Assembly (NCBI RefSeq): GCF_051903065.1
Contig: NZ_CP178438.1
Length of the DNA stretch: 64,000 bases
Source: Escherichia coli
GTDB lineage: Bacteria > Pseudomonadota > Gammaproteobacteria > Enterobacterales > Enterobacteriaceae
Direction: 5' to 3' (one strand)
Under the pieces are notes generated by a model. The model saw only the letters and a program-made list of their open reading frames with translations. It was not told where the DNA came from and did not search any database. Shown here piece after piece: positions 2,372 through 25,988 of this stretch (position 1 is the first letter of the stretch; the number at the start of each line of letters is the position of its first letter). A program made the translations under genes and the position numbers.

Positions 2372-3273
<902 letters not shown>

Positions 3274-5258: not shown

Positions 5259-5334
5259 AAGCTTGTAAGCGGCGCCACCAAAATCATCGTGAAATGATAT
5301 CCTTCATCATTCGTAATGTTTTCCGGATGATGGG

Positions 5335-6321
5335 ATGAACAACAGCGCTTTTACTTTCCAGACACTACACCCGGATACCATCATGGACGCTCTGTTTGAG
5401 CAAGGGATCCGGGTGGATTCCGGTCTTACCCCGCTTAACAGCTATGAAAACCGTGTCTATCAATTTCAGGACGAAGATCGTCGACGTTTTGTCGTCAAAT
5501 TTTATCGCCCTGAACGTTGGACAGCCGATCAAATCCTCGAAGAACATCAATTTGCGTTGCAGCTGGTAAATGATGAAGTTCCGGTCGCAGCACCTGTGGC
5601 CTTTAACGGTCAGACTTTATTGAATCATCAGGGATTTTATTTCGCTGTTTTTCCCAGCGTCGGTGGTCGCCAGTTCGAAGCTGATAATATCGATCAGATG
5701 GAAGCGGTTGGGCGTTATTTAGGGCGTATGCACCAGACGGGGCGCAAACAGCTTTTTATCCATCGCCCGACCATCGGTCTGAATGAATATCTCATTGAGC
5801 CACGCAAGCTGTTTGAGGACGCTACACTGATACCTTCCGGGTTGAAAGCGGCATTCCTGAAAGCGACAGATGAGCTGATCGCCGCCGTTACAGCACACTG
5901 GCGGGAAGATTTCACCGTTCTGCGGCTACATGGAGACTGCCACGCCGGGAATATTCTCTGGCGCGATGGTCCAATGTTTGTTGATCTGGATGATGCACGT
6001 AATGGTCCAGCTATTCAGGATTTGTGGATGTTGCTCAATGGCGATAAAGCCGAGCAGCGGATGCAACTGGAAACTATTATTGAAGCTTATGAAGAATTTA
6101 GCGAGTTCGACACCGCTGAAATCGGACTGATTGAACCTTTACGCGCCATGCGTTTGGTTTATTATCTTGCCTGGCTAATGCGGCGTTGGGCTGATCCCGC
6201 GTTCCCGAAAAATTTCCCGTGGTTAACCGGGGAAGATTACTGGCTACGACAGACGGCGACTTTTATAGAACAGGCAAAAGTTCTACAAGAACCCCCTTTG
6301 CAATTAACACCTATGTATTAA
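5335..6321 (+). CDS. srkA: Stress-response Ser/Thr protein kinase SrkA (RdoA/YihE)
   Basis: 328-aa ORF recognised as YihE; kinase-like HGDCHAGN and DLDD motifs; sits immediately upstream of dsbA as in E. coli. Confidence 0.9.
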   Translation: MNNSAFTFQTLHPDTIMDALFEQGIRVDSGLTPLNSYENRVYQFQDEDRRRFVVKFYRPERWTADQILEEHQFALQLVNDEVPVAAPVAFNGQTLLNHQGFYFAVFPSVGGRQFEADNIDQMEAVGRYLGRMHQTGRKQLFIHRPTIGLNEYLIEPRKLFEDATLIPSGLKAAFLKATDELIAAVTAHWREDFTVLRLHGDCHAGNILWRDGPMFVDLDDARNGPAIQDLWMLLNGDKAEQRMQLETIIEAYEEFSEFDTAEIGLIEPLRAMRLVYYLAWLMRRWADPAFPKNFPWLTGEDYWLRQTATFIEQAKVLQEPPLQLTPMY

Positions 6322-6337
6322 TCGGAGAGAGTAGATC

Positions 6338-6964
6338 ATGAAAAAGATTTGGCTGGCGCTGGCTGGTTTAGTTTTAGCGTTTAGCGCATCGGCGGCGCAG
6401 TATGAAGATGGTAAACAGTACACTACCCTGGAAAAACCGGTAGCTGGCGCGCCGCAAGTGCTGGAGTTTTTCTCTTTCTTCTGCCCGCACTGCTATCAGT
6501 TTGAAGAAGTTCTGCATATTTCTGATAATGTGAAGAAAAAACTGCCGGAAGGCGTGAAGATGACTAAATACCACGTCAACTTCATGGGTGGTGACCTGGG
6601 CAAAGATCTGACTCAGGCATGGGCTGTGGCGATGGCGCTGGGCGTGGAAGACAAAGTGACTGTTCCGCTGTTTGAAGGCGTACAGAAAACCCAGACCATT
6701 CGTTCTGCTTCTGATATCCGCGATGTATTTATCAACGCAGGTATTAAAGGTGAAGAGTACGACGCGGCGTGGAACAGCTTCGTGGTGAAATCTCTGGTCG
6801 CTCAGCAGGAAAAAGCTGCAGCTGACGTGCAATTGCGTGGTGTTCCGGCGATGTTTGTTAACGGTAAATATCAGCTGAATCCGCAGGGTATGGATACCAG
6901 CAATATGGATGTTTTTGTTCAGCAGTATGCTGATACTGTGAAATATCTGTCCGAGAAAAAATAA
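6338..6964 (+). CDS. dsbA: Periplasmic thiol:disulfide oxidoreductase DsbA
   Basis: 208-aa ORF with signal peptide and the CPHC active site. Confidence 0.96.
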
Positions 6965-6978
6965 TTCAATGTAAATTA

Positions 6979-7011
6979 CATAAAGCCCGTGAATATTCAC
7001 GGGCTTTTTTT
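6979..7011 (+). terminator. Rho-independent terminator after dsbA
   Basis: Hairpin gcccgtgaatattcacgggc followed by a T-run. Confidence 0.6.
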
Positions 7012-7118
7012 ATTATTTTATAAATATAAATACATTCTGATAATGCATCCTGCCGCTGGACATTATTTCAGCATAAGTGGATATTCAAAGTTTTGCTGTT
7101 TTATCAGGGAATATTTAT

Positions 7119-7379
7119 ATGATACGTAAGTCAGCTACAGGTGTTATTGTTGCGTTAGCCGTAATCTGGGGTGGTGGCACATGGTACACAGGTACGCAAA
7201 TTCAGCCTGGTGTCGAAAAATTTATTAAAGATTTTAACGATGCTAAAAAGAAAGGTGAACATGCCTACGATATGACGTTAAGTTATAAAAACTTTGACAA
7301 AGGCTTTTTTAATTCCCATTTTCAAATGCAAATTTCATTTGATAACGGTGCACCCGATCTCAATATCAAGCCAGGCCAG
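7119..7379 (+). pseudogene. yihF: yihF 5' fragment (DUF945 protein), interrupted by IS1
   Basis: The frame MIRKSATGVIVALAVIWGGGTWYTG... runs directly into the IS1 terminal repeat; the remainder of the frame resumes after the IS. Confidence 0.8.
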
Positions 7380-7394
7380 GGTAATGACTCCAAC

Positions 7395-7898
7395 TTATTG
7401 ATAGTGTTTTATGTTCAGATAATGCCCGATGACTTTGTCATGCAGCTCCACCGATTTTGAGAACGACAGCGACTTCCGTCCCAGCCGTGCCAGGTGCTGC
7501 CTCAGATTCAGGTTATGCCGCTCAATTCGCTGCGTATATCGCTTGCTGATTACGTGCAGCTTTCCCTTCAGGCGGGATTCATACAGCGGCCAGCCATCCG
7601 TCATCCATATCACCACGTCAAAGGGTGACAGCAGGCTCATAAGACGCCCCAGCGTCGCCATAGTGCGTTCACCGAATACGTGCGCAACAACCGTCTTCCG
7701 GAGCCTGTCATACGCGTAAAACAGCCAGCGCTGGCGCGATTTAGCCCCGACATAGCCCCACTGTTCGTCCATTTCCGCGCAGACGATGACGTCACTGCCC
7801 GGCTGTATGCGCGAGGTTACCGACTGCGGCCTGAGTTTTTTAAGTGACGTAAAATCGTGTTGAGGCCAACGCCCATAATGCGGGCTGTTGCCCGGCAT
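7395..7898 (-). CDS. insB: IS1 InsB (made as an InsAB' fusion by frameshift)
   Basis: 167-aa ORF overlapping insA in the -1 frame, as is typical for IS1. Confidence 0.9.
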
Positions 7899-8092
7899 CC
7901 AACGCCATTCATGGCCATATCAATGATTTTCTGGTGCGTACCGGGTTGAGAAGCGGTGTAAGTGAACTGCAGTTGCCATGTTTTACGGCAGTGAGAGCAG
8001 AGATAGCGCTGATGTCCGGCGGTGCTTTTGCCGTTACGCACCACCCCGTCAGTAGCTGAACAGGAGGGACAGCTGATAGAAACAGAAGCCAC
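7817..8092 (-). CDS. insA: IS1 InsA
   Basis: 91-aa protein [23 protein letters not shown]... with a zinc-finger-like N-terminus. Confidence 0.9.
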
Positions 8093-8147
8093 TGGAGCAC
8101 CTCAAAAACACCATCATACACTAAATCAGTAAGTTGGCAGCATCACC

Positions 8148-9326
8148 CCAGGCCAGAAAGTTGTATTTGATGTGGATGTTGAGCACGGTCCGTTGCCCAT
8201 CACAATGTTAATGCATGGTAATGTCATCCCAGCACTGGCAGCGGCAAAAGTGAACTTAGTGAATAATGAACTGACACAACCGCTATTTATCGCCGCGAAA
8301 AATAAATCGCCCGTGGAAGCGACATTGCGATTCGCGTTTGGTGGCTCATTCTCTACGACATTAGATGTTGCCCCTGCAGAGTATGGAAAGTTTTCTTTTG
8401 GTGAGGGCCAGTTTACTTTTAATGGTGATGGTAGTTCATTGTCTAACCTGGATATTGAAGTCAAAGTCGAAGATATTGTTCTGCAATTATCACCAATGAA
8501 CAAAGTAACGGCAAAAAGTTTTACCATTGATTCTCTGACACGATTAGAAGAAAAGAAATTTCCGGTTGGTGAAAGCGAGTCGAAATTTAATCAGGTTAAT
8601 ATTATCAATCAGGGGGAAGACGTTGCCCAAATCGATGCTTTCGTTGCAAAAACCAGGCTGGATCGCGTTAAAGACAAAGATTATATCAATGTCAATCTGA
8701 CCTACGAACTTGATAAGTTAACAAAAGGGAATCAGCAACTCGGTAGTGGTGAGTGGTCATTGATTGCTGAATCTATTGATCCCTCAGCAGTGCGCCAATT
8801 TATCATCCAGTATAACATTGCGATGCAGAAGCAGCTTGCTGCACACCCTGAGTTAGCAAACGATGAAGTTGCTCTGCAAGAAGTGAATGCTGCATTGTTC
8901 AAAGAGTATTTACCGTTATTACAACAAAGTGAGCCGACCATTAAACAACCGGTAAGATGGAAGAACGCACTCGGCGAACTAAATGCCAATCTGGATATCA
9001 GTATTGCCGACCCAGCCAAATCTTCATCATCCACAAACAAAGATATTAAATCGCTCAATTTTGATGTGAAGATACCGCTTAATGTCGCCACAGAAATCGC
9101 AAAACAGCTTAATTTATCTGAAGGAATGGATGCGGAAAAAGCGCAAAAGCAGGCTGATAAACAAATCAGCGGGATGATGACATTAGGTCAGATGTTTCAG
9201 TTAATCACGATTGACAACAATACCGCCTCGCTGCAACTGCGTTATACACCGGGTAAAGTTGTTTTTAACGGACAGGAGATGAGCGAAGAAGAATTTATGT
9301 CTCGTGCCGGACGTTTTGTTCATTAA
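8148..9326 (+). pseudogene. yihF: yihF 3' fragment (DUF945 protein)
   Basis: The frame restarts in phase at the duplicated CCAGGCCAG; the two fragments minus the duplicated codons reconstitute about 476 aa. Confidence 0.8.
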
Positions 9327-9366
9327 AATACTCACTCGCCTCTGCTCATTCAGAGGCGAGCAAAAT

Positions 9367-10323
9367 TTACTTGTCCTGCCGCTGTGATGACATCAACGAC
9401 GTCAGAAGCCGGTCTTTTTCCTGCCACAGTGAGTTCAGCCATTGCTGAAAATGGCGCTTAAAGCTTTTGTCATTGATGTAGTCGCCATGTAACTCATCGG
9501 CAACAGGCTGCAAATCCACATGTACGACAATCCGCGTCAGTTTACCGCTTAACATATCGAAGAACGGCTGACGGTTATTGTCCGGATAACACAGCGTAAC
9601 ATTAAGCAGTTTATCGAATTGTTTACCCAGTACATTTAGCGCCATCGCAATGCCTGCCGCCTTTGGTGGCAACAAGTTTTGAAAAGTGGAGTGGGTTTGC
9701 TGATGTTTTTCTTGCGTGAAACGGGAGCCTTCAACGAAATTGACAATGGTGGTGGGATGCAGGCGAAACTTTTCACAAGAACGCCGAGTGGTTTCAACAT
9801 CTTTACCACGTCGCTCCGGATGACGTAATAAATAAGCGCGGGAATAACGCTTCATAAACGGCATATCCAGCGCCCAGCACGCCAGGCCAAGAAATGGCAC
9901 CCAGGCCAGCTGTTGCTTGAGGAAATATTTATTCATCGGAATGTGCTTACGAAACAGCACGCACAGTACGACAATATCTGCCCAACTACGGTGGTTACAA
10001 ATAAGCAGATACCAGTTCTTCTTACTTAACCCTTCCAGCCCGTGAACTTCCCATTGCAGGTGTGGGTTCAGATGCAGTAATACCGCCAGACCTTCACACC
10101 AGCAATACATCATAAAATCACAAAAACGCGAAACCTTTCGCCAAATGACTGGCACAGGTAGCAATAGTTTTACAATCCCGGCAATGATGATCGGGACGGA
10201 ACAAAAAATAGTGACCAAAATGGTCAATACGATACTCAGCAAAAGGGTTATCGCAGCGAGTATTCTCGTCATAATGAATTTATTCAAAAGGTTAGCCATA
10301 GACAGTGCGCTAAAGAAGCGCAA
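9367..10323 (-). CDS. yihG: Putative PlsC-family acyltransferase YihG
   Basis: 318-aa ORF with N-terminal membrane segments and the acyltransferase HxxxxD motif (NHRSWAD); K-12 position between yihF and polA. Confidence 0.85.
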
Positions 10324-10379
10324 GGCGCAGATTTTAGCAGAAAACGACCCAAATAACGGATGATCCTTAAGGAGAAAAA

Positions 10380-10545
10380 TAATTCATATCTATCCACATT
10401 AGAAAAAATCCCATTATCTCAATTATTAGGGATGGCTTTATTTTTAACTGCATGAAAAACAAAGACAAACATCATGCTGTAAAAAGCATGATAATAAATT
10501 AAAAGCGATGTAAATAATTTATGCACAAAGTTATCCACATGACGA
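10380..10545 (+). promoter_or_regulatory. polA upstream region with DnaA-box-like sequences
   Basis: TTATCCACA-type 9-mers (tatccacat, gttatccacatg) upstream of polA; the functional assignment rests on memory of the polA promoter. Confidence 0.35.
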
Positions 10546-10662
10546 TTTGCGAGCGATCCAGAAGATCTACAAAAGATTTTCACGAAAAGCGGTGAAAAAC
10601 TCATGTTTTTATCCTGTCTGTGGCATCCTTTACCCATAATCTGATAAACAGGCACGGACATT

Positions 10663-13449
10663 ATGGTTCAGATCCCCCAAAATCCACTTATCCTTGTAGA
10701 TGGTTCATCTTATCTTTATCGCGCATATCACGCGTTTCCTCCGCTGACTAACAGCGCAGGCGAGCCGACCGGTGCGATGTATGGTGTCCTCAACATGCTG
10801 CGCAGTCTGATCATGCAATATAAACCGACGCATGCAGCGGTGGTCTTTGACGCCAAGGGAAAAACCTTTCGTGATGAACTGTTTGAACATTACAAATCAC
10901 ATCGCCCGCCAATGCCGGACGATCTGCGTGCACAAATCGAACCCTTGCACGCGATGGTTAAAGCGATGGGACTGCCGCTGCTGGCGGTTTCTGGCGTAGA
11001 AGCGGACGACGTTATCGGTACTCTGGCGCGCGAAGCCGAAAAAGCCGGGCGTCCGGTGCTGATCAGCACTGGCGATAAAGATATGGCGCAGCTGGTGACG
11101 CCAAATATTACGCTTATCAATACCATGACGAATACCATCCTCGGACCGGAAGAGGTGATGAATAAGTACGGCGTGCCGCCAGAACTGATCATCGATTTCC
11201 TGGCGCTGATGGGTGACTCCTCTGATAACATTCCTGGCGTACCGGGCGTCGGTGAAAAAACCGCGCAGGCATTGCTGCAAGGTCTTGGCGGGCTGGATAC
11301 GCTGTATGCCGAGCCAGAAAAAATTGCTGGGTTGAGCTTCCGTGGCGCGAAAACAATGGCAGCGAAGCTCGAGCAAAACAAAGAAGTTGCTTATCTCTCA
11401 TACCAGCTGGCGACGATTAAAACCGACGTTGAACTGGAGCTGACCTGTGAACAACTGGAAGTGCAGCAACCGGCAGCGGAAGAGTTGTTGGGGCTGTTCA
11501 AAAAGTATGAGTTCAAACGCTGGACTGCTGATGTCGAAGCGGGCAAATGGTTACAGGCCAAAGGGGCAAAACCCGCCGCGAAGCCACAGGAAACCAGTGT
11601 TGCAGACGAAGCTCCAGAAGTGACGGCAACGGTGATTTCTTATGACAACTACGTCACCATCCTTGATGAAGAAACACTGAAAGCGTGGATTGCGAAGCTG
11701 GAAAAAGCGCCGGTATTTGCATTTGATACCGAAACCGACAGCCTTGATAACATCTCTGCTAACCTGGTCGGGCTTTCTTTTGCTATCGAGCCAGGCGTAG
11801 CGGCATATATTCCGGTTGCTCATGATTATCTTGATGCGCCCGATCAAATCTCTCGCGAGCGTGCACTCGAGTTGCTAAAACCGCTGCTGGAAGATGAAAA
11901 GGCGCTGAAGGTCGGGCAAAACCTGAAATACGATCGCGGTATTCTGGCGAATTACGGCATTGAGCTGCGTGGGATTGCGTTTGATACCATGCTGGAGTCC
12001 TACATTCTCAATAGCGTTGCCGGGCGTCACGATATGGACAGCCTCGCGGAACGTTGGTTGAAGCACAAAACCATCACTTTTGAAGAGATTGCGGGTAAAG
12101 GCAAAAATCAACTGACCTTTAACCAGATTGCCCTCGAAGAGGCCGGACGTTACGCCGCCGAAGATGCGGATGTCACCTTGCAGTTGCATCTGAAAATGTG
12201 GCCAGATCTGCAAAAACACAAAGGGCCGTTGAACGTCTTCGAGAATATCGAAATGCCGCTGGTGCCGGTGCTTTCACGCATTGAACGTAACGGTGTGAAG
12301 ATCGATCCGAAAGTGCTGCACAATCATTCTGAAGAGCTTACCTTGCGTCTGGCTGAGCTGGAAAAGAAAGCGCATGAAATTGCAGGTGAGGAATTTAACC
12401 TTTCTTCCACCAAGCAGTTACAAACCATTCTGTTTGAAAAACAGGGCATTAAACCACTGAAGAAAACGCCGGGTGGCGCGCCGTCAACGTCGGAAGAGGT
12501 ACTGGAAGAACTGGCGCTGGACTATCCGTTGCCAAAAGTGATTCTGGAGTATCGTGGTCTGGCGAAGCTGAAGTCGACTTACACCGACAAGCTGCCGCTG
12601 ATGATCAACCCGAAAACCGGGCGTGTGCATACCTCTTATCACCAGGCAGTAACTGCAACGGGACGTTTATCGTCAACCGATCCTAACCTGCAAAACATTC
12701 CGGTGCGTAACGAAGAAGGTCGTCGTATCCGCCAGGCGTTTATTGCGCCAGAGGATTATGTGATTGTCTCAGCGGACTACTCGCAGATTGAACTGCGCAT
12801 TATGGCGCATCTCTCGCGTGACAAAGGCTTGCTGACCGCATTCGCGGAAGGAAAAGATATCCACCGGGCAACGGCGGCAGAAGTGTTTGGTTTGCCACTG
12901 GAAACCGTCACCAGCGAGCAACGCCGTAGCGCGAAAGCGATCAACTTTGGTCTGATTTATGGCATGAGTGCTTTCGGTCTGGCGCGGCAATTGAACATTC
13001 CACGTAAAGAAGCGCAGAAGTACATGGACCTTTACTTCGAACGCTACCCTGGCGTGCTGGAGTATATGGAACGCACCCGTGCTCAGGCGAAAGAGCAGGG
13101 CTACGTTGAAACGCTGGACGGACGCCGTCTGTATCTGCCGGATATCAAATCCAGCAATGGTGCTCGTCGTGCAGCGGCTGAACGTGCAGCCATTAACGCG
13201 CCAATGCAGGGAACCGCCGCCGACATTATCAAACGGGCGATGATTGCCGTTGATGCGTGGTTACAGGCTGAGCAACCGCGTGTACGTATGATCATGCAGG
13301 TACACGATGAACTGGTATTTGAAGTCCATAAAGATGATGTCGATGCCGTCGCGAAGCAGATTCATCAACTGATGGAAAACTGTACCCGTCTGGATGTGCC
13401 GTTGCTGGTGGAAGTGGGGAGTGGCGAAAACTGGGATCAGGCGCACTAA
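10663..13449 (+). CDS. polA: DNA polymerase I
   Basis: 928-aa ORF with 5'-3' exonuclease, 3'-5' exonuclease and polymerase motifs ([23 protein letters not shown]). Confidence 0.97.
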
Positions 13450-13596
13450 GATTCGCCTGAACATGCCCTTTTTTCGTAAGTAAGCAACATAAGCTGTCAC
13501 GTTTTGTGATGGCTATTAGAAATTCCTATGCAACAACTGAAAAAAAATTACAAAAAGTGCTTTCTGAACTGAACAAAAAAGAGTAAAGTTAGTCGC

Positions 13597-13705
13597 GTAG
13601 GGTACAGAGGTAAGATGTTCTATCTTTCAGACCTTTTACTTCACGTAATCGGATTTGGCTGAATATTTTAGCCGCCCCAGTCAGTAATGACTGGGGCGTT
13701 TTTTA
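13597..13705 (+). ncRNA. spf: Spot 42 small RNA
   Basis: Sequence gtagggtacagaggtaagatgttctatctttcagacc...gccccagtcagtaatgactggggcgtttttta matches Spot 42; canonical position between polA and engB. Confidence 0.9.
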
Positions 13706-13728
13706 TTGGGCGAAAGAAAAAATCCGCA

Positions 13729-13820
13729 ATGCCTGATGCGCCATGTTTATCAGGCCAACGGTAGAATTGTAATCTATTGAATTTACGGGCCGGATACGCC
13801 ACATCCGGCACAAGCATTAA
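13729..13820. repeat. REP (repetitive extragenic palindromic) elements
   Basis: gcctgatgcgccatgtttatcaggcc ... gggccggatacgccacatccggcac palindromic units. Confidence 0.6.
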
Positions 13821-13830
13821 GGCAAGAAAA

Positions 13831-14463
13831 TTATTCGCCGTCCTGCGTTTCTTCTACAGGCTGCATCTCGCTAAACCAGGTATCCAGTTTCTGCCGCAGC
13901 TTGTCCACGCCTTGTTTCTTCAACGAAGAAAACGTTTCAACCTGCACATCACCGTTAAACGCCAGTACAGCTTCACGCACCATATTCAATTGCGCTTTAC
14001 GTGCGCCGCTTGCCAGTTTGTCCGCTTTGGTCAGCAACACCAGCACGGCGATATTGCTGTCTACCGCCCACTCAATCATCTGCTGATCCAAATCTTTCAG
14101 CGGATGGCGAATATCCATTAGCACTACCAGACCTTGTAGGCTCTGACGTTTTTCGAGGTACTCGCCGAGCGCGCGCTGCCATTTGCGCTTCATCTCTTCC
14201 GGGACTTCCGCATAACCGTACCCAGGCAAGTCAACCAGACGCTTGCCGTCAGCCACTTCAAACAGGTTGATAAGCTGGGTGCGTCCTGGGGTTTTTGAGG
14301 TACGAGCCAGGCTTTTCTGGTTAGTCAGCGTGTTCAGCGCGCTGGATTTACCTGCGTTGGAACGGCCTGCAAAAGCCACTTCAATTCCGGTATCGGAAGG
14401 TAGGTGGCGAATATCAGGCGCACTCATCACAAAATGCGTCTGTTGATAATTCAAATTAGTCAA
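13831..14463 (-). CDS. engB: Ribosome biogenesis GTPase EngB (YihA)
   Basis: 210-aa ORF with G1 motif GRSNAGKSS and G4 motif TKADK. Confidence 0.92.
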
Positions 14464-14733
14464 AGCGGTCGTCTCCGTCAGTCAAAGCTTTGTGGCGATT
14501 ATACCTGAACCATAATAAAAGGCGGATTTTTCGGCGTGAGCGTTGTAAGTAAAAGCCATACGCTTTGTGAGACATTGCCGATAGTCTTTATGCGAAATAG
14601 CAGAGAAAATTCTGCGATGCATGTCAAATAAGCTATATAAATCAGTGAATTGCTTTTATATAAAACTCTGAAAATGTGCAAATACTGATGGCGGTTGATT
14701 GTTTGTTTAAAGCAAAGGCGTAAAGTAACACCC

Positions 14734-14978
14734 ATAGAGCGAGGACGCTAACAGGAACAATGACTCAGGATGAGGGTCAGGAGCGCCAGGAGGCGAAGAC
14801 AGAGGATTGTCAGGAAGACAAACGTCCGGAGACGTAATTAAACGGAAATGGAATCAACACGGATTGTTCCGGCTAATGGAAAAACAGGGTGTGTTGGCGG
14901 CCTGCAAGGATTGTAAGACCCGTTAAGGGTTATGAGTCAGGAAAAAAGGCGACAGAGTAATCTGTCGCCTTTTTTCTT
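14734..14978 (+). ncRNA. csrC: CsrC small RNA (CsrA-sequestering)
   Basis: About 245 nt with many GGA motifs (caggatgagg, caggagcg, caggaagac, ccggagacg, tcaggaaa...) ending in the terminator ggcgacagagtaatctgtcgccttttttc; canonical position between engB and yihI. Confidence 0.85.
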
Positions 14979-15044
14979 TGCTTGCTTTCTGTTAGATTCC
15001 GCCGCAAATCTATACTGAATAAAACGGCTAAAAGACGAACCATT

Positions 15045-15551
15045 ATGAAACCATCTTCACCATCACGCAGCAAAGGTCATGCAAAAGCGCGTCGCAAAAC
15101 GCGCGAAGAGCTGAATCAGGAAGCTCGTGACCGCAAGCGTCAGAAAAAACGTCGTGGTCATGCGCCGGGCAGCCGCGCAGCGGGCGGTAACACCACGTCA
15201 GGCAGCAAAGGCCAGAACGCACCAAAAGATCCACGTATTGGCAGTAAAACCCCTATTCCATTGGGCGTGACTGAAAAAGTCACCAAACAGCACAAACCGA
15301 AGAGTGAGAAACCTATGCTTTCACCGCAGGCGGAGTTGGAATTACTGGAAACGGATGAGCGTCTGGATGCGCTGCTGGAACGTCTGGAAGCAGGCGAAAC
15401 CCTGAGTGCCGAAGAGCAATCCTGGGTGGATGCTAAACTGGATCGTATTGATGAGTTGATGCAGAAACTCGGCCTCTCTTATGACGATGACGAAGAAGAG
15501 GAAGAAGACGAGAAGCAAGAAGACATGATGCGTCTGCTGCGGGGCAACTAA
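15045..15551 (+). CDS. yihI: Der GTPase-activating protein YihI
   Basis: Basic N-terminus [22 protein letters not shown]... and acidic C-terminus; start chosen at an internal ATG. Confidence 0.88.
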
Positions 15552-15739
15552 CGGATTGCCGCCGTGGGCCTTCCCGTTCTGCTGATAACCCTTCCGGTTA
15601 TATGTTATCTGGTGTGGTTATTCGTTAAACTACAGCGGTTGTCGCGGCGACAAAAGTGGCTGCGCAACCGGCTGATGACCCGAAACGGGCATCCGCCGGT
15701 ACGCCGTAGCCGCCAGAGACGCCATCGGAAGGAGTGAGC

Positions 15740-17113
15740 ATGTCTGTACAGCAAATCGACTGGGATCTGGCCCTGATCCAGAAATATAACTATTCCGGGC
15801 CACGATACACCTCGTACCCGACCGCGCTGGAGTTTTCAGAAGACTTCGGCGAACAGGCGTTTTTACAAGCCGTGGCGCGCTATCCTGAGCGTCCATTATC
15901 TCTCTACGTACATATCCCGTTCTGCCATAAGCTTTGTTACTTCTGCGGCTGCAATAAGATTGTTACTCGCCAGCAGCACAAGGCCGATCAGTATCTGGAC
16001 GCGCTGGAGCAAGAAATCGTCCATCGTGCACCGCTGTTCGCCGGGCGTCACGTCAGCCAATTGCACTGGGGCGGCGGAACGCCGACGTATCTTAATAAAG
16101 CGCAAATCAGCCGCCTGATGAAGCTGCTGCACGAAAACTTCCAGTTCAATGCCGATGCGGAGATTTCGATCGAAGTCGATCCGCGGGAAATCGAACTGGA
16201 TGTACTCGATCATTTACGCGCCGAAGGCTTTAATCGCCTGAGCATGGGCGTGCAGGACTTCAACAAAGAAGTGCAACGTCTGGTTAACCGCGAGCAGGAT
16301 GAAGAGTTTATCTTTGCACTGCTTAACCATGCGCGTGAGATTGGTTTTACCTCCACCAACATCGACCTGATTTACGGCCTGCCGAAACAGACGCCGGAAA
16401 GTTTCGCCTTTACCCTGAAACGTGTGGCGGAGCTGAACCCCGATCGTCTGAGCGTCTTTAACTACGCGCATTTGCCGACCATTTTTGCTGCTCAGCGCAA
16501 AATCAAAGATGCTGACCTGCCGAGTCCGCAGCAAAAACTCGATATCCTGCAGGAAACCATCGCCTTCCTGACGCAATCGGGCTATCAGTTTATCGGTATG
16601 GATCACTTTGCCCGTCCTGATGACGAGCTGGCGGTGGCCCAGCGTGAAGGCGTGCTGCATCGTAACTTCCAGGGCTACACCACTCAGGGCGATACCGATC
16701 TGCTGGGGATGGGCGTTTCCGCCATCAGCATGATTGGCGACTGCTACGCGCAGAACCAGAAAGAGTTGAAACAGTACTATCAGCAAGTGGATGAACAAGG
16801 CAATGCGCTGTGGCGTGGTATTGCGCTAACGCGTGATGACTGTATTCGCCGCGATGTGATTAAGTCGCTCATCTGCAACTTCCGTCTGGATTACGCCCCT
16901 ATTGAGAAACAGTGGGATTTGCACTTCGCTGATTACTTTGCGGAAGATCTCAAGCTGCTCGCCCCGTTAGCAAAAGATGGGCTGGTGGATGTGGATGAGA
17001 AGGGGATTCAGGTGACGGCGAAAGGTCGCTTGCTGATCCGCAACATTTGCATGTGCTTTGATACCTATCTGCGCCAGAAAGCGCGGATGCAGCAGTTCTC
17101 TCGGGTGATTTAA
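15740..17113 (+). CDS. hemN: Oxygen-independent coproporphyrinogen III oxidase (radical SAM)
   Basis: CxxxCxxC radical-SAM motif (HIPFCHKLCYFCGCN); about 457 aa. Confidence 0.93.
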   Translation: MSVQQIDWDLALIQKYNYSGPRYTSYPTALEFSEDFGEQAFLQAVARYPERPLSLYVHIPFCHKLCYFCGCNKIVTRQQHKADQYLDALEQEIVHRAPLFAGRHVSQLHWGGGTPTYLNKAQISRLMKLLHENFQFNADAEISIEVDPREIELDVLDHLRAEGFNRLSMGVQDFNKEVQRLVNREQDEEFIFALLNHAREIGFTSTNIDLIYGLPKQTPESFAFTLKRVAELNPDRLSVFNYAHLPTIFAAQRKIKDADLPSPQQKLDILQETIAFLTQSGYQFIGMDHFARPDDELAVAQREGVLHRNFQGYTTQGDTDLLGMGVSAISMIGDCYAQNQKELKQYYQQVDEQGNALWRGIALTRDDCIRRDVIKSLICNFRLDYAPIEKQWDLHFADYFAEDLKLLAPLAKDGLVDVDEKGIQVTAKGRLLIRNICMCFDTYLRQKARMQQFSRVI

Positions 17114-17164
17114 ATAGTGAATGGCGCTTCGTTTACAAAGTAGAAAACGAAAGCGCCATCAATG

Positions 17165-17275
17165 TGCTGAGAACAAGATTGCCTGATGCGCTACGCTTAT
17201 CAGGCCTACAAAACCTGTTGAAAATATTGCTTTTGTAGGCCGGATAAGGCGTTCACGCCGCATCCGGCATGAACA
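17165..17275. repeat. REP elements
   Basis: Palindromic gcctgatgcgctacgcttatcaggcctac ... gtaggccggataaggcgttcacgccgcatccggca units. Confidence 0.55.
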
Positions 17276-17302
17276 AAGAGCACTTCATCAGCAATCTGAA
17301 AC

Positions 17303-17413
17303 TCAACTAAACAGCCCAATCATCGCGGCACACAGCACGGCAGCAACAGCAGTTTGCGGTGTGTGGCTGTCAACTGCGCCACTCGATACCAGATTAATTA
17401 TTGATTCCAGCAT
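17303..17413 (-). CDS. yshB: Small membrane protein YshB (36 aa)
   Basis: Minus-strand ORF MLESIINLVSSGAVDSHTPQTAVAAVLCAAMIGLFS found by manual translation; known small-protein locus between hemN and glnG. Confidence 0.6.
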   Translation of the reverse strand: MLESIINLVSSGAVDSHTPQTAVAAVLCAAMIGLFS

Positions 17414-17524
17414 AATGACTCTCCCCGTTTTCCGGGCAAGATCATACTGAACTTATCGGAACAGTAAAGCGCAAAATACCAGCAATTTGCGCTCAATAAT
17501 CAATCTTTACACACAAGCCGTGAA

Positions 17525-18934
17525 TCACTCCATCCCCAGCTCTTTTAACTTACGCGTCAGGGTGTTACGGCCCCAGCCAAGTAGCCGCGCCGCTTCCTGT
17601 TTATGCCCCTGCGTATGTCGCAACGCGGTCGTCAGTAACGTCCGCTCCAGCTCTGGCTGCGCTTCGGAAAGCAGATTTTGATGACCGGAACGCAGCGCTC
17701 TGTCTGCCCACTGCGCAAGAAGCGTCGCCCAACTGTCCGGTTGCATTTGCGAAGTACTCTCCGCAACCGTTGATTCAAACAGTTCGCCGGGCAAATCCTG
17801 AATCAACACTTCCTGCCCGGCGGCCATCACCGTTAGCCAGCGGCAGGTGTTTTCCAGCTGGCGCACGTTGCCTGGCCACGCCAGACGCGTCAGAGCAGCT
17901 TCGGTTTCCGGATGCAGCAACTTCGCTTCTACGCCCAGTTCGCGCGCGGCAACCTGTAAAAAATGGCGCGCCAGACGGGGAATATCTTCCCGACGCTCAC
18001 GCAGCGGCGGCAGATGAACGCGGATAACGTTCAGGCGGTGGAACAGATCCTCACGGAACTTACCTTCCTGCACCCGCTGTTCGAGATTCTGGTGAGTGGC
18101 AGCGATAATCCGCACATCCACTTTCACCGGCGCATAGCCGCCAACGCGGTAAAACTGGCCGTCTGCCAGCACGCGCAGCAAACGCGTCTGCACATCCAGC
18201 GGCATATCGCCAATTTCATCGAGAAATAATGTACCGCCATCAGCCTGTTCAAAACGCCCCTGACGAATGGTATTCGCGCCGGTAAACGCGCCTTTCTCGT
18301 GACCAAACAGTTCTGATTCGATCAAATCCTTCGGGATAGCCGCCATATTCAGAGCGATAAATGGCGCTTTGGCTCGCGGACTGTGGCGATGCAGGGCATG
18401 AGCGACCAGTTCTTTACCGGTGCCGGATTCGCCGTTAATCAGCACGCTAATAGAAGAACGCGAAAGCCGACCGATAATACGGAACACGTCCTGCATGGCT
18501 GGCGCTTCGCCGATGATATCGGTCGTTGGGCCGTTAAGCTGAACATTACGCGGCTGCTGCTGTTCCTGGTAATGACTGATGGCGCGCTCAACCAGCGCCA
18601 CGGCTTCGTCGATATCAAACGGTTTGGGCAGATAATCAAACGCCCCTTGTTGATAGGCGCTGACGGCAGCATCCAGATCGGAATGTGCGGTCATAATGAT
18701 GACCGGAAGCATCGGATGGCGCTGTTTAATCTGCTTGAGCAGTGCCAGCCCGTCCATTCCCGGCATACGGATATCTGAAAGCAGCACATCCGGCGTTTTG
18801 CTCGCCAGCGCCTCCAGTACCTCCGCGCCGTTCTCAAATGTCGTACAGGTTAAACCCGCTCCAGCGAGCGCACGTTCAAGCACCCAACGGATGGAACTAT
18901 CGTCATCGACTACCCAGACTATCCCTCGTTGCAT
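17525..18934 (-). CDS. glnG: Nitrogen regulation response regulator NtrC (sigma-54 activator)
   Basis: Receiver domain, AAA+ domain ([14 protein letters not shown]) and C-terminal HTH; start at [12 protein letters not shown]. Confidence 0.95.
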
Positions 18935-18945
18935 AAACGTCACCT

Positions 18946-19995
18946 TTATTTCCTGATAGGCAGGTAAACCGAGAACTCGGTATGCCCTGGCCAACTGGTA
19001 AATTCAATTTTGCCTGAATGCTGATCAATCAAATTACGAGCGATGGATAAGCCAAGCCCGGTGCCACCTTCGCGGCCGCTGACCATCGGGTAAAACAGCG
19101 TATCCTGCAAATGAGGCGGAATGCCTGGCCCGTTATCTTCCACATCAATCCGCGCCGCCAGCCGATAGCGTTCGCCGTGTAAGGTCAGTTGAAACGCGGT
19201 ACGGGTACGCAGAATGATTTCACCGCCTTCCGGCCCCAGCGCCTGTAGCGCATTGCGCACAATATTCAGCAAGACCTGTTCAATTTGATCCGGGTCGTGC
19301 GCCAGTTCTGGCAGGCTGGGGTCGTAATCACGAATCAACCGCACGTTGTCCGGCAGTTCCATCGACACCAGCGTCACCACGCGTTCAGCTACTTTGTGAA
19401 TACTTTCGGTCACGCGCGTACCGGGCAGCTGCGGCCCCAACAGACGGTCGACCAGATTTCGCAGCCGGTCCGCCTGTTCGATAATCACTTTGGTATATTC
19501 CAGCAGTGACGGGTCAGGTAATGCTTTGCTGAGTAGCTGCGCCGCGCCACGTAAACCGCCAAGCGGATTTTTAATCTCATGTGCCAGGCCACGCACTAAA
19601 TCACGGGCAGCAACTTGTTGAGCATGTTGTAGCTGTTCCTGGCTTAAGCGGCGCTGGTTATCCATCGGCGCCATCTCCAGCAGGATCATGCCGTCCGGCA
19701 TACGCTGGGCCGTCACAGAAAGGATATGCGAGCGCCCGTCGATGACCAGCGTCACTTCGTTATCGGTAAAACCTTGCCCCGCCTCCAGACTTTCTTGCAT
19801 CAGCTCGATATTTAATGAGAAGTAGCTCAACAGTTCCGGTAACGGTGTACCAAACAATTTGCGGGAGCTTTGGGCGAGCAGTTGTTGCGCGGCGGGGTTG
19901 GCGTAATGGATCGCCAGGTTGTCATCGATTAACAAAATACTGTTAATCAGCGAGTTGAGGATCTGCCCAGCATCGGGCTGCGTGCCTGTTGCCAT
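18946..19995 (-). CDS. glnL: Nitrogen regulation sensor histidine kinase NtrB
   Basis: 349-aa ORF with H-box HEIKNPL and ATP-binding motifs; upstream of glnG. Confidence 0.95.
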
Positions 19996-20168
19996 AAAGC
20001 AGTCTCCTGAACAGGTTGCACCATTTTAGTGCATTATAGCTTTTTACGGATAAAAAGCGCGAAGCATCAGAGAATTGACGGAGAAAAAAGCCCATGCAGA
20101 GATGGGCTGAAAGTTTCCACGGCAACTAAATCCCGGCGTTGTTGCGCCGGGTAGTACAACTTCAACTA

Positions 20169-21578
20169 TTAGACGCTGTAGTACAGCTCAAACTCTACCG
20201 GATGCGGAGTCATACGCACGCGGTCATCTTCTTCGCGACGCAGAGCGATGTACGCATCGATCGCTTCATCCGTGAACACGCCACCGGCTTTCAGGAACTC
20301 GCGGTCCAGATCCAGCTCGTTCAGTGCTTCTTCCAGAGAGCCTGCAACTTGTGGGATCTCTTTCGCTTCTTCTGGCGGCAGGTCATACAGGTTTTTGTCC
20401 ATGGCTTCGCCCGGATGGATCTTGTTCTTGATACCATCAAGACCGGCCATCAGCAGGGCAGCAAAGCACAGGTACGGGTTAGCCGCCGGATCCGGGAAAC
20501 GTACTTCGATACGACGCGCTTTCGGAGAAGAAACCACTGGAATACGGATAGAAGCAGAACGGTTACGTGCAGAGTAAGCCAGCATTACCGGTGCTTCGTA
20601 GCCCGGGACCAGACGCTTATAAGAGTTGGTGGTCGGGTTTGCCAGGGCGTTAATCGCTTTCGCGTGTTTGATTACGCCGCCAATGTAGTACAGCGCCTGC
20701 TCAGACAGACCAGCGTATTTGTCGCCCGCGAACAGGTTAACGCCGTTTTTAGACAGAGACATGTGGCAGTGCATACCGGAGCCGTTATCACCGAACATCG
20801 GTTTTGGCATAAAGGTCGCGGTTTTACCGAAGCGGTGCGCTACGTTGTGCACAACATATTTGTAGATCTGAATTTCGTCAGCTTTTTTGGTCATGGTATT
20901 GAAGCGGGTAGCCACTTCGTTCTGACCAGCAGTTGCTACTTCGTGGTGATGGGCTTCAACCACCAGACCCATCTGTTCCATCACCAGACACATTTCAGAA
21001 CGAATATCCTGAGCCGAGTCTACCGGCGGAACCGGGAAGTAACCGCCTTTAACTGCCGGACGGTGACCTTTGTTACCACCTTCATATTGGGTGGAGGAGT
21101 TCCATGCGCCTTCGATATCGTCGATAGCAACATGAGAACCGGAGATAGATGATCCGAAACGGATATCATCGAACAGGAAGAATTCAGGTTCTGGCCCGAA
21201 CAGTACGGTGTCGGCAATGCCAGTAGAACGCAGGTAATCTTCAGCGCGCTTCGCGATGGAGCGCGGGTCACGGTCATAGCCTTGCAGGGTGCCAGGTTCA
21301 AGGATGTCGCAACGGATAATCAGGGTGGAGTCGGCGAAGAACGGGTCAATCACTGCGGTGGATGCGTCTGGCATCAGCACCATGTCGGACTCGTTAATGC
21401 CTTTCCAGCCGCCAATCGAGGAGCCGTCAAACATTTTGCCTTCTTCGAAGAATTCGGCATTCACCTGATGAGCAGGGATAGTGACGTGCTGTTCTTTACC
21501 TTTGGTATCGGTGAAGCGCAAATCAACAAACTTCACTTCGTGCTCGTTCAGCATCGTCAGTACGTGTTCAGCGGACAT
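20169..21578 (-). CDS. glnA: Glutamine synthetase
   Basis: 469-aa ORF starting [24 protein letters not shown] with the adenylylation-site region. Confidence 0.97.
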
Positions 21579-21656
21579 ACTTTAACTCTCCTGGATTGGT
21601 CATTGTCGTCGTGGTAACGAAATCTGCAATTATTTTGGCCGTGTCGCCGTAAAAAA

Positions 21657-21679
21657 GATAAAGCGAAAACTGTGCCAAC
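21657..21679 (-). promoter_or_regulatory. glnAp2 sigma-54 promoter (-24/-12 element)
   Basis: The minus strand reads GTTGGCACAGTTTTCGCTTTATC (TGGCAC-N5-TTCGCT), about 80 nt upstream of the glnA ATG. Confidence 0.7.
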
Positions 21680-21729
21680 TTTTAAATTGCCCCTAAAAGG
21701 CGTTATCATGCTTAACATCGTGCAAAAGG

Positions 21730-21800
21730 GCTGCACCATGATGTGAATGTTGCACCAATATAGTGCTTCAATGGAAACATTAAGCACCATATTGGTGCAA
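21730..21800 (-). promoter_or_regulatory. NtrC enhancer-binding sites upstream of glnA
   Basis: Dyads of the TGCACC...GGTGCA type (gcaccatattggtgca, ttgcaccaatatagtgc, tgcaccatgatgtg). Confidence 0.55.
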
Positions 21801-21950
21801 TGACCTTTGGATAACCCTTTTTATGCTCCGTGAAAGCGATCACAAAGGGACTCTGCAATACTTGTTTGCGGAGGATGTTTGTGATCCTGTTTTGTAGTGC
21901 GATTAATCCGTGTACAATAACGCGCTATTTCTAATGCCTGAGGCAAAGTT

Positions 21951-23774
21951 GTGATCGAAAAATTGCGTAATATCGCCATCATCGCGCACGTAGACCATGG
22001 TAAAACCACCCTGGTAGACAAGCTGCTCCAACAATCCGGTACGTTCGACTCTCGTGCCGAAACCCAAGAGCGCGTGATGGACTCCAACGATTTGGAGAAA
22101 GAGCGTGGGATTACCATCCTCGCGAAAAACACCGCTATCAAATGGAATGATTACCGTATCAACATCGTTGATACCCCGGGGCACGCCGACTTCGGTGGTG
22201 AAGTTGAACGTGTAATGTCCATGGTAGACTCAGTGCTGCTGGTGGTTGACGCATTTGACGGCCCGATGCCGCAAACGCGCTTCGTAACCAAAAAAGCGTT
22301 TGCTTACGGCCTGAAGCCGATTGTTGTTATCAACAAAGTTGACCGCCCTGGCGCGCGTCCTGATTGGGTTGTGGATCAGGTATTCGATCTGTTCGTTAAC
22401 CTCGACGCGACCGACGAGCAGCTGGACTTCCCGATCGTTTACGCTTCTGCGCTGAACGGTATCGCGGGTCTGGACCACGAAGATATGGCGGAAGACATGA
22501 CCCCGCTGTATCAGGCGATTGTTGATCACGTTCCTGCGCCGGACGTTGACCTTGACGGTCCGTTCCAGATGCAGATTTCTCAGCTCGATTACAACAGCTA
22601 TGTTGGCGTTATCGGCATTGGCCGCATCAAGCGCGGTAAAGTGAAGCCGAACCAGCAGGTCACTATCATCGATAGCGAAGGCAAAACCCGCAACGCGAAA
22701 GTCGGTAAAGTGCTGGGCCACCTCGGTCTGGAACGTATCGAAACCGATCTGGCGGAAGCTGGCGATATCGTGGCGATCACGGGCCTGGGCGAACTGAACA
22801 TTTCTGACACCGTTTGCGACACGCAAAACGTTGAAGCGCTGCCGGCACTCTCCGTTGATGAGCCGACCGTTTCTATGTTCTTCTGCGTTAACACCTCGCC
22901 GTTCTGCGGTAAAGAAGGTAAGTTCGTAACGTCTCGTCAGATCCTGGATCGTCTGAACAAAGAACTGGTACACAACGTTGCGCTGCGCGTAGAAGAAACC
23001 GAAGACGCTGATGCGTTCCGCGTTTCTGGTCGTGGCGAACTGCACCTGTCTGTTCTGATCGAAAACATGCGTCGTGAAGGTTTCGAACTGGCGGTATCCC
23101 GTCCGAAAGTTATCTTCCGTGAAATCGACGGTCGTAAACAAGAGCCGTATGAAAACGTGACTCTGGACGTTGAAGAACAGCATCAGGGTTCTGTAATGCA
23201 GGCGCTGGGCGAACGTAAAGGCGACCTGAAAAACATGAATCCAGACGGTAAAGGCCGCGTACGTCTCGACTACGTGATCCCAAGCCGTGGTCTGATTGGC
23301 TTCCGTTCTGAGTTCATGACCATGACTTCCGGTACTGGTCTGCTGTACTCCACCTTCAGCCACTACGACGACGTACGTCCGGGCGAAGTGGGTCAGCGTC
23401 AGAACGGTGTACTGATCTCTAACGGTCAGGGTAAAGCGGTCGCGTTCGCGCTGTTCGGTCTGCAGGATCGCGGTAAGCTGTTCCTCGGTCACGGTGCAGA
23501 AGTTTACGAAGGTCAGATTATCGGTATTCATAGCCGCTCTAACGACCTGACTGTAAACTGCCTGACCGGTAAGAAACTGACCAACATGCGTGCTTCCGGT
23601 ACTGACGAAGCCGTTGTTCTGGTTCCGCCTATCCGCATGACTCTGGAACAAGCTCTGGAGTTCATCGATGATGACGAACTGGTAGAAGTGACTCCGACCT
23701 CTATCCGTATTCGTAAACGTCACCTGACGGAAAACGATCGTCGCCGCGCCAACCGCGCACCGAAAGACGATTAA
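21951..23774 (+). CDS. typA: Ribosome-associated translational GTPase BipA/TypA
   Basis: 607-aa ORF with G-domain motifs [18 protein letters not shown]. Confidence 0.95.
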
Positions 23775-23792
23775 TTTCGTTTTTTAGTTATA

Positions 23793-23823
23793 AAAAACCT
23801 GCCATCGCTGGCAGGTTTTTTTT
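23793..23823 (+). terminator. Rho-independent terminator after typA
   Basis: Hairpin aacctgccatcgctggcaggtt followed by a T-run. Confidence 0.6.
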
Positions 23824-23990
23824 TACCTGTCGTGAGCGCACACCAATGCGAGTATCTCCCTTATAAGTCTGTGATTACGTCAATAGAGAGCTTTGTCACA
23901 ATTATCTGCAAAGTCATACGCCGTTAATTGCTTTCTTTTTTGGCGTAAGCGTAAGATGCTTCATCTGGTTTAAACCAAAAGGATTAAACA

Positions 23991-24701
23991 ATGGCGGAGA
24001 ATCAATCCACCGTAGAAAATGCAAAAGAGAAACTGGATCGGTGGTTGAAAGATGGCATCACCACGCCGGGTGGAAAACTCCCTTCAGAAAGAGAGCTGGG
24101 AGAACTGCTGGGCATTAAACGTATGACGCTGCGCCAGGCGTTGTTGAACCTCGAGGCAGAATCCAAAATCTTCCGTAAAGATCGTAAGGGGTGGTTCGTG
24201 ACCCAGCCGCGATTTAATTACAGTCCGGAGCTGTCGGCGAGCTTTCAGCGGGCCGCAATTGAGCAAGGGCGGGAACCTTCCTGGGGGTTTACCGAGAAAA
24301 ACCGTACCAGCGATATTCCCGAGACGCTCGCGCCACTGATTGCAGTGACACCATCAACTGAACTCTATCGCATCACCGGCTGGGGGGCGCTGGAAGGACA
24401 TAAAGTTTTCTATCACGAAACATATATTAATCCTGAAGTTGCTCCGGGTTTTATTGAACAACTTGAAAACCACTCATTTTCTGCAGTCTGGGAAAAGTGC
24501 TACCAAAAAGAGACGGTAGTAAAAAAATTGATTTTCAAACCCGTCAGAATGCCGGGCGATATCAGCAAGTATCTTGGCGGTTCTGCGGGTATGCCAGCGA
24601 TCTTAATTGAAAAGCATCGCGCCGACCAGCAAGGCAATATTGTCCAGATAGATATTGAATATTGGCGATTTGAGGCCGTAGACCTCATCATTAATCTGTA
24701 G
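23991..24701 (+). CDS. yihL: GntR-family transcriptional regulator YihL
   Basis: 236-aa ORF with an N-terminal winged-HTH signature (PSERELGELLGIKRMTLRQAL). Confidence 0.85.
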   Translation: MAENQSTVENAKEKLDRWLKDGITTPGGKLPSERELGELLGIKRMTLRQALLNLEAESKIFRKDRKGWFVTQPRFNYSPELSASFQRAAIEQGREPSWGFTEKNRTSDIPETLAPLIAVTPSTELYRITGWGALEGHKVFYHETYINPEVAPGFIEQLENHSFSAVWEKCYQKETVVKKLIFKPVRMPGDISKYLGGSAGMPAILIEKHRADQQGNIVQIDIEYWRFEAVDLIINL

Positions 24702-24844
24702 GTGTTTTATGGTGACAATAAATAACGCAAGAAAGATTCTACAACGTGTCGACACTCTTCCTCTTTATTTACATGCTTATGCCTTTCATGGTGATGCTGC
24801 CAACTTACTGATTTAGTGTATGATGGTGTTTTTGAGGTGCTCCA

Positions 24845-25120
24845 GTGGCTTCTGTTTCTATCAGCTGTCCCTCCTGTTCAGCTACTGACGGGGTGGTGCG
24901 TAACGGCAAAAGCACCGCCGGACATCAGCGCTATCTCTGCTCTCACTGCCGTAAAACATGGCAACTGCAGTTCACTTACACCGCTTCTCAACCCGGTACG
25001 CACCAGAAAATCATTGATATGGCCATGAATGGCGTTGGATGCCGGGCAACAGCCCGCATTATGGGCGTTGGCCTCAACACGATTTTACGTCACTTAAAAA
25101 ACTCAGGCCGCAGTCGGTAA
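24845..25120 (+). CDS. insA: IS1 InsA
   Basis: Protein identical to the other IS1 copy; GTG start. Confidence 0.9.
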
Positions 25121-25542
25121 CCTCGCGCATACAGCCGGGCAGTGACGTCATCGTCTGCGCGGAAATGGACGAACAGTGGGGCTATGTCGGGGCTAAATCG
25201 CGCCAGCGCTGGCTGTTTTACGCGTATGACAGGCTCCGGAAGACGGTTGTTGCGCACGTATTCGGTGAACGCACTATGGCGACGCTGGGGCGTCTTATGA
25301 GCCTGCTGTCACCCTTTGACGTGGTGATATGGATGACGGATGGCTGGCCGCTGTATGAATCCCGCCTGAAGGGAAAGCTGCACGTAATCAGCAAGCGATA
25401 TACGCAGCGAATTGAGCGGCATAACCTGAATCTGAGGCAGCACCTGGCACGGCTGGGACGGAAGTCGCTGTCGTTCTCAAAATCGGTGGAGCTGCATGAC
25501 AAAGTCATCGGGCATTATCTGAACATAAAACACTATCAATAA
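25039..25542 (+). CDS. insB: IS1 InsB
   Basis: Protein identical to the other IS1 copy. Confidence 0.9.
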
Positions 25543-25556
25543 GTTGGAGTCATTAC

Positions 25557-25988
25557 CCAGATCGTATAGGTCAAAAAAGTCTGTATTTGTCGGGAGCAGG
25601 ATTTTGTGTCCTGTTCGCGTTTCCTTTCTTCTTATTACTGGATAGCAAAAGTACGCTCATCATCTGGTGCAGTATGATCCTCGGCTACAACTTAGGTCCG
25701 ACGATGATGTTTGCCGTGCAGCCAACACTTTTCACCCGCATGTTCGGTACCAAAGTACGATATACCGGCCTTTCTTTTGCTTATCAATTTTCCGCGATTC
25801 TTGGCGGACTAAGCCCCCTTATCGCCTCAAGTTTGCTGGCGCTAGGGGGAGGAAAACCGTGGTATGTCGCTCTGTTTTTATTTGCTGTCTCAGTTCTTTC
25901 CTTTGTTTGCGTCTGGCTGATTGAGCCGACCGATGAACAAGAAACCGCTTCTTACCGCTACATCAGGGAACAATCTCATGAAAACTGA
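25557..25988 (+). pseudogene. 3' fragment of an MFS-type transporter gene, 5'-truncated at the IS1 junction
   Basis: The reading frame is open from the first base after IS1 and encodes only the last ~4 hydrophobic helices (…FCVLFAFPFFLLLD…LGGLSPLIASSLLALGG…YVALFLFAVSVLSFVCVWLIEP…); there is no upstream start or N-terminal half. Confidence 0.6.

Follow-up and report, generated by a model that had tools for sequence, protein, structure and literature searches.

Inverted IS1 copies around the polA–glnA segment of an Escherichia coli chromosome: probably an incidental arrangement of two separate elements

A pair of inverted copies of the insertion sequence (IS) IS1 brackets the polA–glnA region in a 64,000-nt stretch of an Escherichia coli chromosome (contig NZ_CP178438.1; hereafter the window, by which we mean the whole stretch that was analysed). 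A repeat search across the whole window returned a single long inverted pair, with arms at 7379–8147 and 24790–25558 that are 769 nt long, 100% complementary and separated by a spacer of 16,642 nt, and it found no third IS1. One nucleotide of each 769-nt arm is a chance match between the flanks, and the IS1 elements proper are 768 bp each. A preliminary description of this DNA had called the two copies identical and inverted, which their 100% reverse-complement identity bears out; the end coordinate given there, 25556, is one base short, as the right-hand element ends at 25557. The features at and around the two elements, named copy A (left) and copy B (right), are as follows.

7119–7379, plus strand: 5' fragment of yihF (DUF945/YdgA family), split by copy A (annotation and sequence)
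7371–7379, no strand: left target duplication of copy A, the 9-bp CCAGGCCAG, identical to 8148–8156
7380–8147, minus strand, with the right inverted repeat (IRR) at left: IS1 copy A (768 bp, IS1A type), an exact inverse match to copy B; RefSeq names it an IS1A family transposase in genome 23CRST027
8148–8156, no strand: right target duplication of copy A, the 9-bp CCAGGCCAG, identical to 7371–7379
8148–24789, both strands: interior segment, 16,642 bp in K-12 orientation (annotation of 23CRST027, Rfam, alignment to MG1655)
24709–24789, plus strand: yihM stub, first 27 codons (81 nt); left junction of the deletion at copy B, at yihM nt 81
24790–25557, plus strand: IS1 copy B (768 bp, IS1A type), an exact inverse match to copy A
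24845–25120, plus strand: insA of copy B, a frame of 91 amino acids (aa)
25039–25542, plus strand: insB' of copy B, a 167-aa frame
25558–25987, plus strand: 3' remnant of an MFS transporter gene, ~429 nt of 1,350; right junction of the 9,628-bp deletion, followed by aldose 1-epimerase and yihX

Both elements are ordinary, canonical IS1 of the IS1A type. Each has the family length of ~768 bp, imperfect ends of ~23 bp (family pattern GGTRATG...) and overlapping insA and insB' frames with an A6C motif. Both copies keep insA (91 aa) and insB' (167 aa) as intact frames. In copy B the A6C motif for the −1 frameshift, TTAAAAAACTC, occupies 25094–25104. The terminal inverted repeats of the copies, GGTGATGCTGCCAACTTACTGAT and GGTAATGACTCCAACTTATTGAT, agree at 18 of their 23 positions. 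The products of insA and insB' both match NCBIfam model NF033558 (IS1 family transposase), InsB' with 145.6 bits against a cutoff of 100 and InsA alone with 91.3 bits over model positions 1–81. The exact 768-bp variant also occurs at 100% identity in many unrelated strains, where it is annotated as IS1A. The repeat in the window exceeds chance by far because it is a mobile element. The target duplication of 8–9 bp typical of IS1 separates the copies: copy A has it and does not differ from IS1A in any respect, whereas copy B lacks it, because copy B sits at the junction of a 9,628-bp deletion. The two copies had previously been taken as equivalent, and the 9-bp duplication at copy A, with none at copy B, speaks against that.

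Copy A is a recent addition to yihF, which with the element included spans 7119–9326. In silico removal of copy A together with one of the 9-mers yields an unbroken yihF frame of 476 aa. In the genome of ECNB21-M121, which matches the window at ~99.97% identity over ~41.6 kb on the flanks, yihF is intact and lacks copy A, and copy B is present with exactly the same junctions as in the window. Copy A is therefore a recent simple insertion, made later than copy B. The absence of copy A from that genome could also be accounted for by precise excision, but such excision is very rare, having been seen once among 857 events in mutation-accumulation lines (PMC5009759).

yihF is a repeated target of IS1. 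Other strains hold IS1 at approximately nt 237 (IS1X2), 927 and 1167 of the gene, and all four insertions, copy A included, have one orientation. Shared ancestry of these insertions across lineages was considered and rejected; their positions differ, and they are independent events in a gene that tolerates them.

The direct duplication at copy A also bears on the possibility of a duplicative inversion, in which copy B, transposing replicatively within the molecule, would have made the pair in a single event. Intramolecular transposition of IS1 yields adjacent deletions and inversions, and copies that are identical and inverted, as these are, would be its product. Such an event would have flipped the interior, yet the interior is collinear (+/+) with both MG1655 and ECNB21-M121. 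It would also have split the target duplication between the two copies in inverted form, whereas copy A has a direct 9-bp duplication on its own two sides. Only a second, exact inversion back could rescue this explanation, which we regard as refuted and to which we assign next to no probability.

Copy B has a different history at its locus. Its flanks, GCCTTTCAT and CAGATCGTA, are unlike each other, leaving no target-site duplication. In the intact allele of strain NB4833, a distance of 9,628 bp separates these flanks, and positions 2973–12600 of the NB4833 locus are missing in the window. This intact alternative allele, present in NB4833 and BH100N, reads yihL, yihM, yihN, a DeoR regulator, a sugar kinase, a yihU-like reductase, an aldolase, a Zn-alcohol dehydrogenase, MFS, MFS, an aldose 1-epimerase and yihX. 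What was lost starts at yihM codon 27, takes in yihN, the DeoR regulator, the kinase, the yihU-like reductase, the aldolase, the alcohol dehydrogenase and the first MFS gene, and reaches into the second one. Among the 5,426 complete E. coli genomes that made up our survey sample, 1,342 carry the alternative yih-locus allele, and the window lineage carries a deleted form of it. Copy B is the older copy and marks a deletion of 9.6 kb.

This part of the chromosome departs from K-12. In MG1655, yihL is followed by yihM, yihN, ompL, yihO-P-Q-R-S-T-U, yihV, csqR and yihX. The yihM-yihN-ompL-yihOPQRSTUV-csqR block of K-12 is absent from the window, and nothing to the right of copy B matches that block before yihX. 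The statement in the preliminary description that gene order is K-12-like on both sides fails on the right, where yihM codon 27 gives way to the MFS remnant, aldose 1-epimerase and yihX. The alternative allele (25558–27000 in the window) stands where K-12 has the ompL-yihOPQRSTUV-csqR sulfoquinovose cluster.

Deletions next to a resident IS1 have precedents. Classic IS1-mediated adjacent deletions were reportedly described by Reif and Saedler in 1975. Copy B, as an intact IS1 without a duplication at a 9.6-kb deletion junction, resembles the IS-anchored deletions of mutation-accumulation lines (PMC5009759). The likeness to adjacent deletions extends to other lineages, which have IS1 in the same orientation with differing and partly nested end points. 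Across E. coli lineages, the locus from yihM to the epimerase gene or yihR (24709–25987 in the window) shows at least six different junction states; its IS1 has one orientation in all of them and lacks a target duplication in every case. In strains 2022CK-00450 and 1008S19 the flanking haplotypes are identical and the junctions are strictly nested at either end, a pattern that points to progressive two-sided erosion by one resident IS1, as would be expected from successive IS1-adjacent deletions. The window lineage and EC09 differ in flanking haplotype, which suggests recurrent independent events, or recombination. The yihM-to-epimerase locus appears to be a recurrent IS1-anchored deletion site at which a sugar-catabolic cluster has been lost in several lineages, and as such it is a more useful subject than the IS1 pair.

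Only two of the surveyed genomes, 23CRST027 and 23CRST031, both from human faeces in Ecuador, combine the two IS1 junctions, each at 100% identity. In each, the two junctions lie on one strand at the expected spacing, i.e., in the ancestral orientation. A few indels set the window apart from 23CRST027, so that it is either a closely related genome or a second assembly from the same lineage. The two IS1 copies of 23CRST027 (its positions 7379–8146 and 24789–25556) show the same single-base indel relative to the window copies and are annotated as 'frameshifted'; this shared 1-nt indel is probably a homopolymer sequencing error and not biology.

That the two copies lie so close together is unremarkable. 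Of the 5,426 genomes, 4,970 contain IS1, at a median of 11 places and a maximum of 68, and the 4.94-Mb chromosome of 23CRST027 has ~37 IS1 places. Random placement of ~37 IS1 gives an expectation of ~4.3 neighbouring gaps of ≤16.6 kb, ~2.2 of them inverted, with a probability of ~0.89 for at least one. The assembly-collapse hazard that had been attached to this pair applies to all ~37 copies alike and is not special to it.

This abundance is also what could make one of the copies suspect as an assembly artefact, a misplaced consensus. With ~37 IS1 per genome, identical repeats are a classic source of misassembly, and the 1-nt indel in both 23CRST027 copies relative to the window hints at homopolymer noise in sequencing. 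Against this, two complete genomes that were deposited independently contain both junctions and a third contains those of copy B, and an artefact would not create the clean 9-bp duplication at copy A. We consider an artefact extremely improbable.

The outer surroundings of the pair decide on a further explanation, namely that the two copies delimit an 18.2-kb composite transposon which moved, or can move, polA–glnA as a unit. IS1 composite transposons exist in both orientations, with direct copies in Tn9 and inverted ones in Tn1681, and the likeness consists of two IS1 around a DNA segment; here both are intact, and the outer ends of the pair are functional-looking IRR ends. The differences are larger. 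The outer flanks CCAGGCCAG and CAGATCGTA differ, so that no duplication surrounds the 18.2-kb unit, and copy A has a duplication of its own. The cargo is native and in place, with the interior and both outer flanks collinear with MG1655, and the close relative ECNB21-M121 holds the locus with copy B alone. The unit was found at no other locus, and the plasmids of PLSDB held no IS1-bounded copy of the block. IS1 composite transposition, moreover, drops steeply with length. A composite transposon as the origin of the pair is effectively refuted, and what probability it keeps is minimal.

Capture of the block by a plasmid was examined as a candidate and rejected, the PLSDB matches being multi-Mb mislabelled chromosomes or native chromosomal fragments. 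One of the records is the circular, 148-kb 'plasmid 3' of Salmonella Senftenberg NCTC10384 (NZ_LN868945.1), which starts next to an rrn operon, beside mobB, and holds dsbA-polA-glnALG-typA in native order without any IS at the borders. This record is apparently a chromosomal segment, rrn-bounded, that was entered as a plasmid, and two other Salmonella records look similar.

The reading that we favour, with a probability of about 0.9, is that the pair consists of two independent, ordinary IS1 elements in an IS1-rich E. coli chromosome and that their inverted arrangement is incidental. In a first step, one or more IS1-associated deletions removed 9,628 bp of the sugar-catabolic cluster and left copy B as a scar. 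Copy A later transposed into the dispensable yihF, making the 9-bp duplication. A local hop from copy B into yihF is a plausible form of this second step; IS1A shows a bias towards local hopping, with 23 insertions observed within 10 kb against 5.1 expected (PMC5009759). The resulting 768 bp of perfect inverted homology is open to RecA-dependent recombination, through which the 16.6-kb interior could flip.

What such a flip would turn around is the following. The interior reads 'yihF, yihG(−), polA(+), spf(+), yihA/engB(−), csrC(+), yihI(+), hemN(+), yshB(−), glnG/L/A(−), typA(+), yihL(+), yihM'(+), and its transcription units all lie wholly within the segment. The genes listed for it in the preliminary description are correct (RefSeq annotation of 23CRST027, Rfam), and the list omitted yshB and the 81-nt yihM stub. 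Two of the listed genes were located by Rfam matches.

13587–13705, plus strand: spf (Spot 42)
14734–14987, plus strand: csrC (CsrC)

The window begins within rrlA/rrfA, which are on the plus strand, and the cumulative GC skew climbs along the window, both of which make the plus strand the leading one. Transcription of polA, typA, hemN and yihI thus runs with replication, and all plus-strand genes of the interior together amount to ~8.8 kb. glnALG, engB and yihG are head-on to replication and total ~5.5 kb. The interior lies in one replichore, near rrnA, and has three Chi sites, all on the plus strand.

The pair has the properties of a substrate for RecA-mediated IS–IS inversion, i.e., inverted repeats of 768–769 nt at 100% identity, 16,642 nt apart on one replicon. 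Recombination between inverted IS copies flips the DNA that separates them, with one copy retained on either side, a change that short reads cannot see (PMC5009759). In population Ara-1 of the long-term evolution experiment (LTEE), a 1.49-Mb inversion through IS1–IS1 recombination was fixed (PMC4173774). The geometry there is the same, with identical inverted IS1 on one chromosome, but the segment here is only 16.6 kb, lies within one replichore and is a potential substrate rather than an event. Since the genes at the two ends, yihF and yihM, are disrupted as it is, a flip would cost no additional gene. It would turn polA, typA and hemN head-on, make glnALG and engB co-directional and reverse the three Chi sites. 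Earlier statements that recombination would flip the segment without loss and would switch the replication-relative direction of polA and glnALG are both supported by these observations. We expect the effect of such altered gene–replication orientation to be at most small.

The observed state is the ancestral one throughout. The same description had concluded that no inversion has occurred in this sequence, and the collinearity of the interior with MG1655 agrees, as does the K-12-like orientation throughout. Its term for the configuration, a latent structural polymorphism, is plausible as to mechanism. All available sequences with the pair (the window, 23CRST027 and 23CRST031) are in the ancestral orientation. 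To represent the inverted state, a junction query was composed of the outer-left flank (6400–7379) and the reverse complement of the inner-right flank (23800–24789), with room for an IS between the halves; none of the 5,426 complete genomes matched both halves at one place.

Several points weigh against our account or limit its force. Any of many genomic IS1 copies, probably identical, could have been the donor of copy A. The deletion at copy B could have arisen either by intramolecular transposition of IS1 (an adjacent deletion) or through two direct IS1 copies that recombined. As both IS1 copies are present in no more than two genomes, the 0/5,426 result says little about the rate of flipping. 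Additionally, some intervals of enterobacterial chromosomes are said, from work in the Roth and Louarn laboratories, to be refractory to inversion.

A stronger claim about the same geometry is that the segment flips appreciably and works as a reversible structural switch, its orientation affecting polA, glnALG or engB through expression or through conflicts with replication. The 768 bp of perfect inverted homology, 16.6 kb apart in one replichore, would allow a lossless inversion, and since short reads are blind to such inversions (PMC5009759), their absence from many datasets is uninformative. However, the annotation ties no recombinase or regulatory logic to the pair, the pair is an accident of two unrelated events, and the transcription units lie wholly inside, so that promoters would travel with their genes. 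The uniformly ancestral orientation of the three sequences and the lack of a recombinant junction in the survey count against a switch as well. A switch of this kind is very unlikely.

Programmed invertible elements offer a further comparison. fimS, the Hin/Gin/Pin systems and shufflons likewise have inverted repeats around a segment that can flip, but they act at short specific sites through a site-specific recombinase of their own and switch a promoter or a coding sequence, and the IS1 pair has none of these features. No invertase or integrase was found in or beside the segment, and only one orientation was seen in the two or three genomes that hold the substrate.

We also think it very unlikely that the 16.6-kb polA–glnA block exists in both orientations at measurable frequency in the 23CRST027/031 lineage with its orientation affecting fitness or expression. 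If both orientations were present, the pair would be an accidental, IS1-made reversible structural polymorphism missed by short-read surveys. If orientation mattered, it would act through the head-on versus co-directional placement of polA, typA, glnALG and engB, together with the three reversed Chi sites.

The pair is an already known kind of feature and a routine outcome of IS1 activity, since IS1 is the textbook insertion sequence of E. coli, both insertions are annotated in RefSeq genomes and inverted IS pairs are standard substrates of inversion, and in itself it matters very little. Two practical consequences remain: the orientation of the block between the copies is not readable from short-read data, and the copies are not to be read as a unit, copy A being a fresh insertion and copy B an old deletion scar.

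A conserved open reading frame (ORF) nearby is more interesting than the IS1 pair and merits its own follow-up. It lies in an insert that K-12 lacks.

30306–32120, plus strand: continuous 604-aa ORF, 39% GC, in the 2,044-bp insert absent from K-12
30371–32414, no strand: insert absent from K-12, 2,044 bp, 40% GC (comparison with K-12)

RefSeq splits the identical sequence of the 604-aa ORF into a 'partial hypothetical protein' and a 'transposase'. The ORF has no sequence match in Pfam, NCBIfam or the PDB, and an exhaustive HMMER search finds a small family whose full-length members are 18–41% identical, with C499, D504, R505 and N575 as the only invariant residues. Its GCKSAKDRT stretch corresponds to the CKSXKDR P-loop of SopB/IpgD and of mammalian inositol 4-phosphatases (PMC3091653). 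The AlphaFold (AF2) model has a pLDDT of 85.7 and a pTM of 0.86. Among PDB structures it is most like Salmonella SopB (8jzl, E 8e-8), followed by two phosphoinositide phosphatases of Legionella, SidP (4jza) and SidF (4fyg). The product is likely an undescribed phosphoinositide phosphatase of the SopB/SidF type. A literature search found no published description of this ORF. About 1,061 of the 5,426 E. coli genomes have it, and in ECNB21-M121 an ISKpn26 interrupts it.

The window also has other repeats and insertions. IS1397 (IS3 family) lies at 2398–3746 on the minus strand, between rrfA and mobB; it is not in K-12 and is common to ECNB21-M121. Intergenic repeat copies of ~135–150 nt that are ~80% alike are found at 17175–17299, 33509–33662 and 63675–63828, the first of them inside the IS1-bounded segment. 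They are repetitive extragenic palindromic (REP) sequences or bacterial interspersed mosaic elements (BIME), with palindromic units visible and one copy overlapping an Rfam ES036 match; an identity as enterobacterial repetitive intergenic consensus (ERIC) sequences was rejected, as they do not match ERIC. At 49442–49864, directly 3' of rhaD, about five tandem units of 92 bp match Rfam naRNA4 (REP325/BIME cluster).

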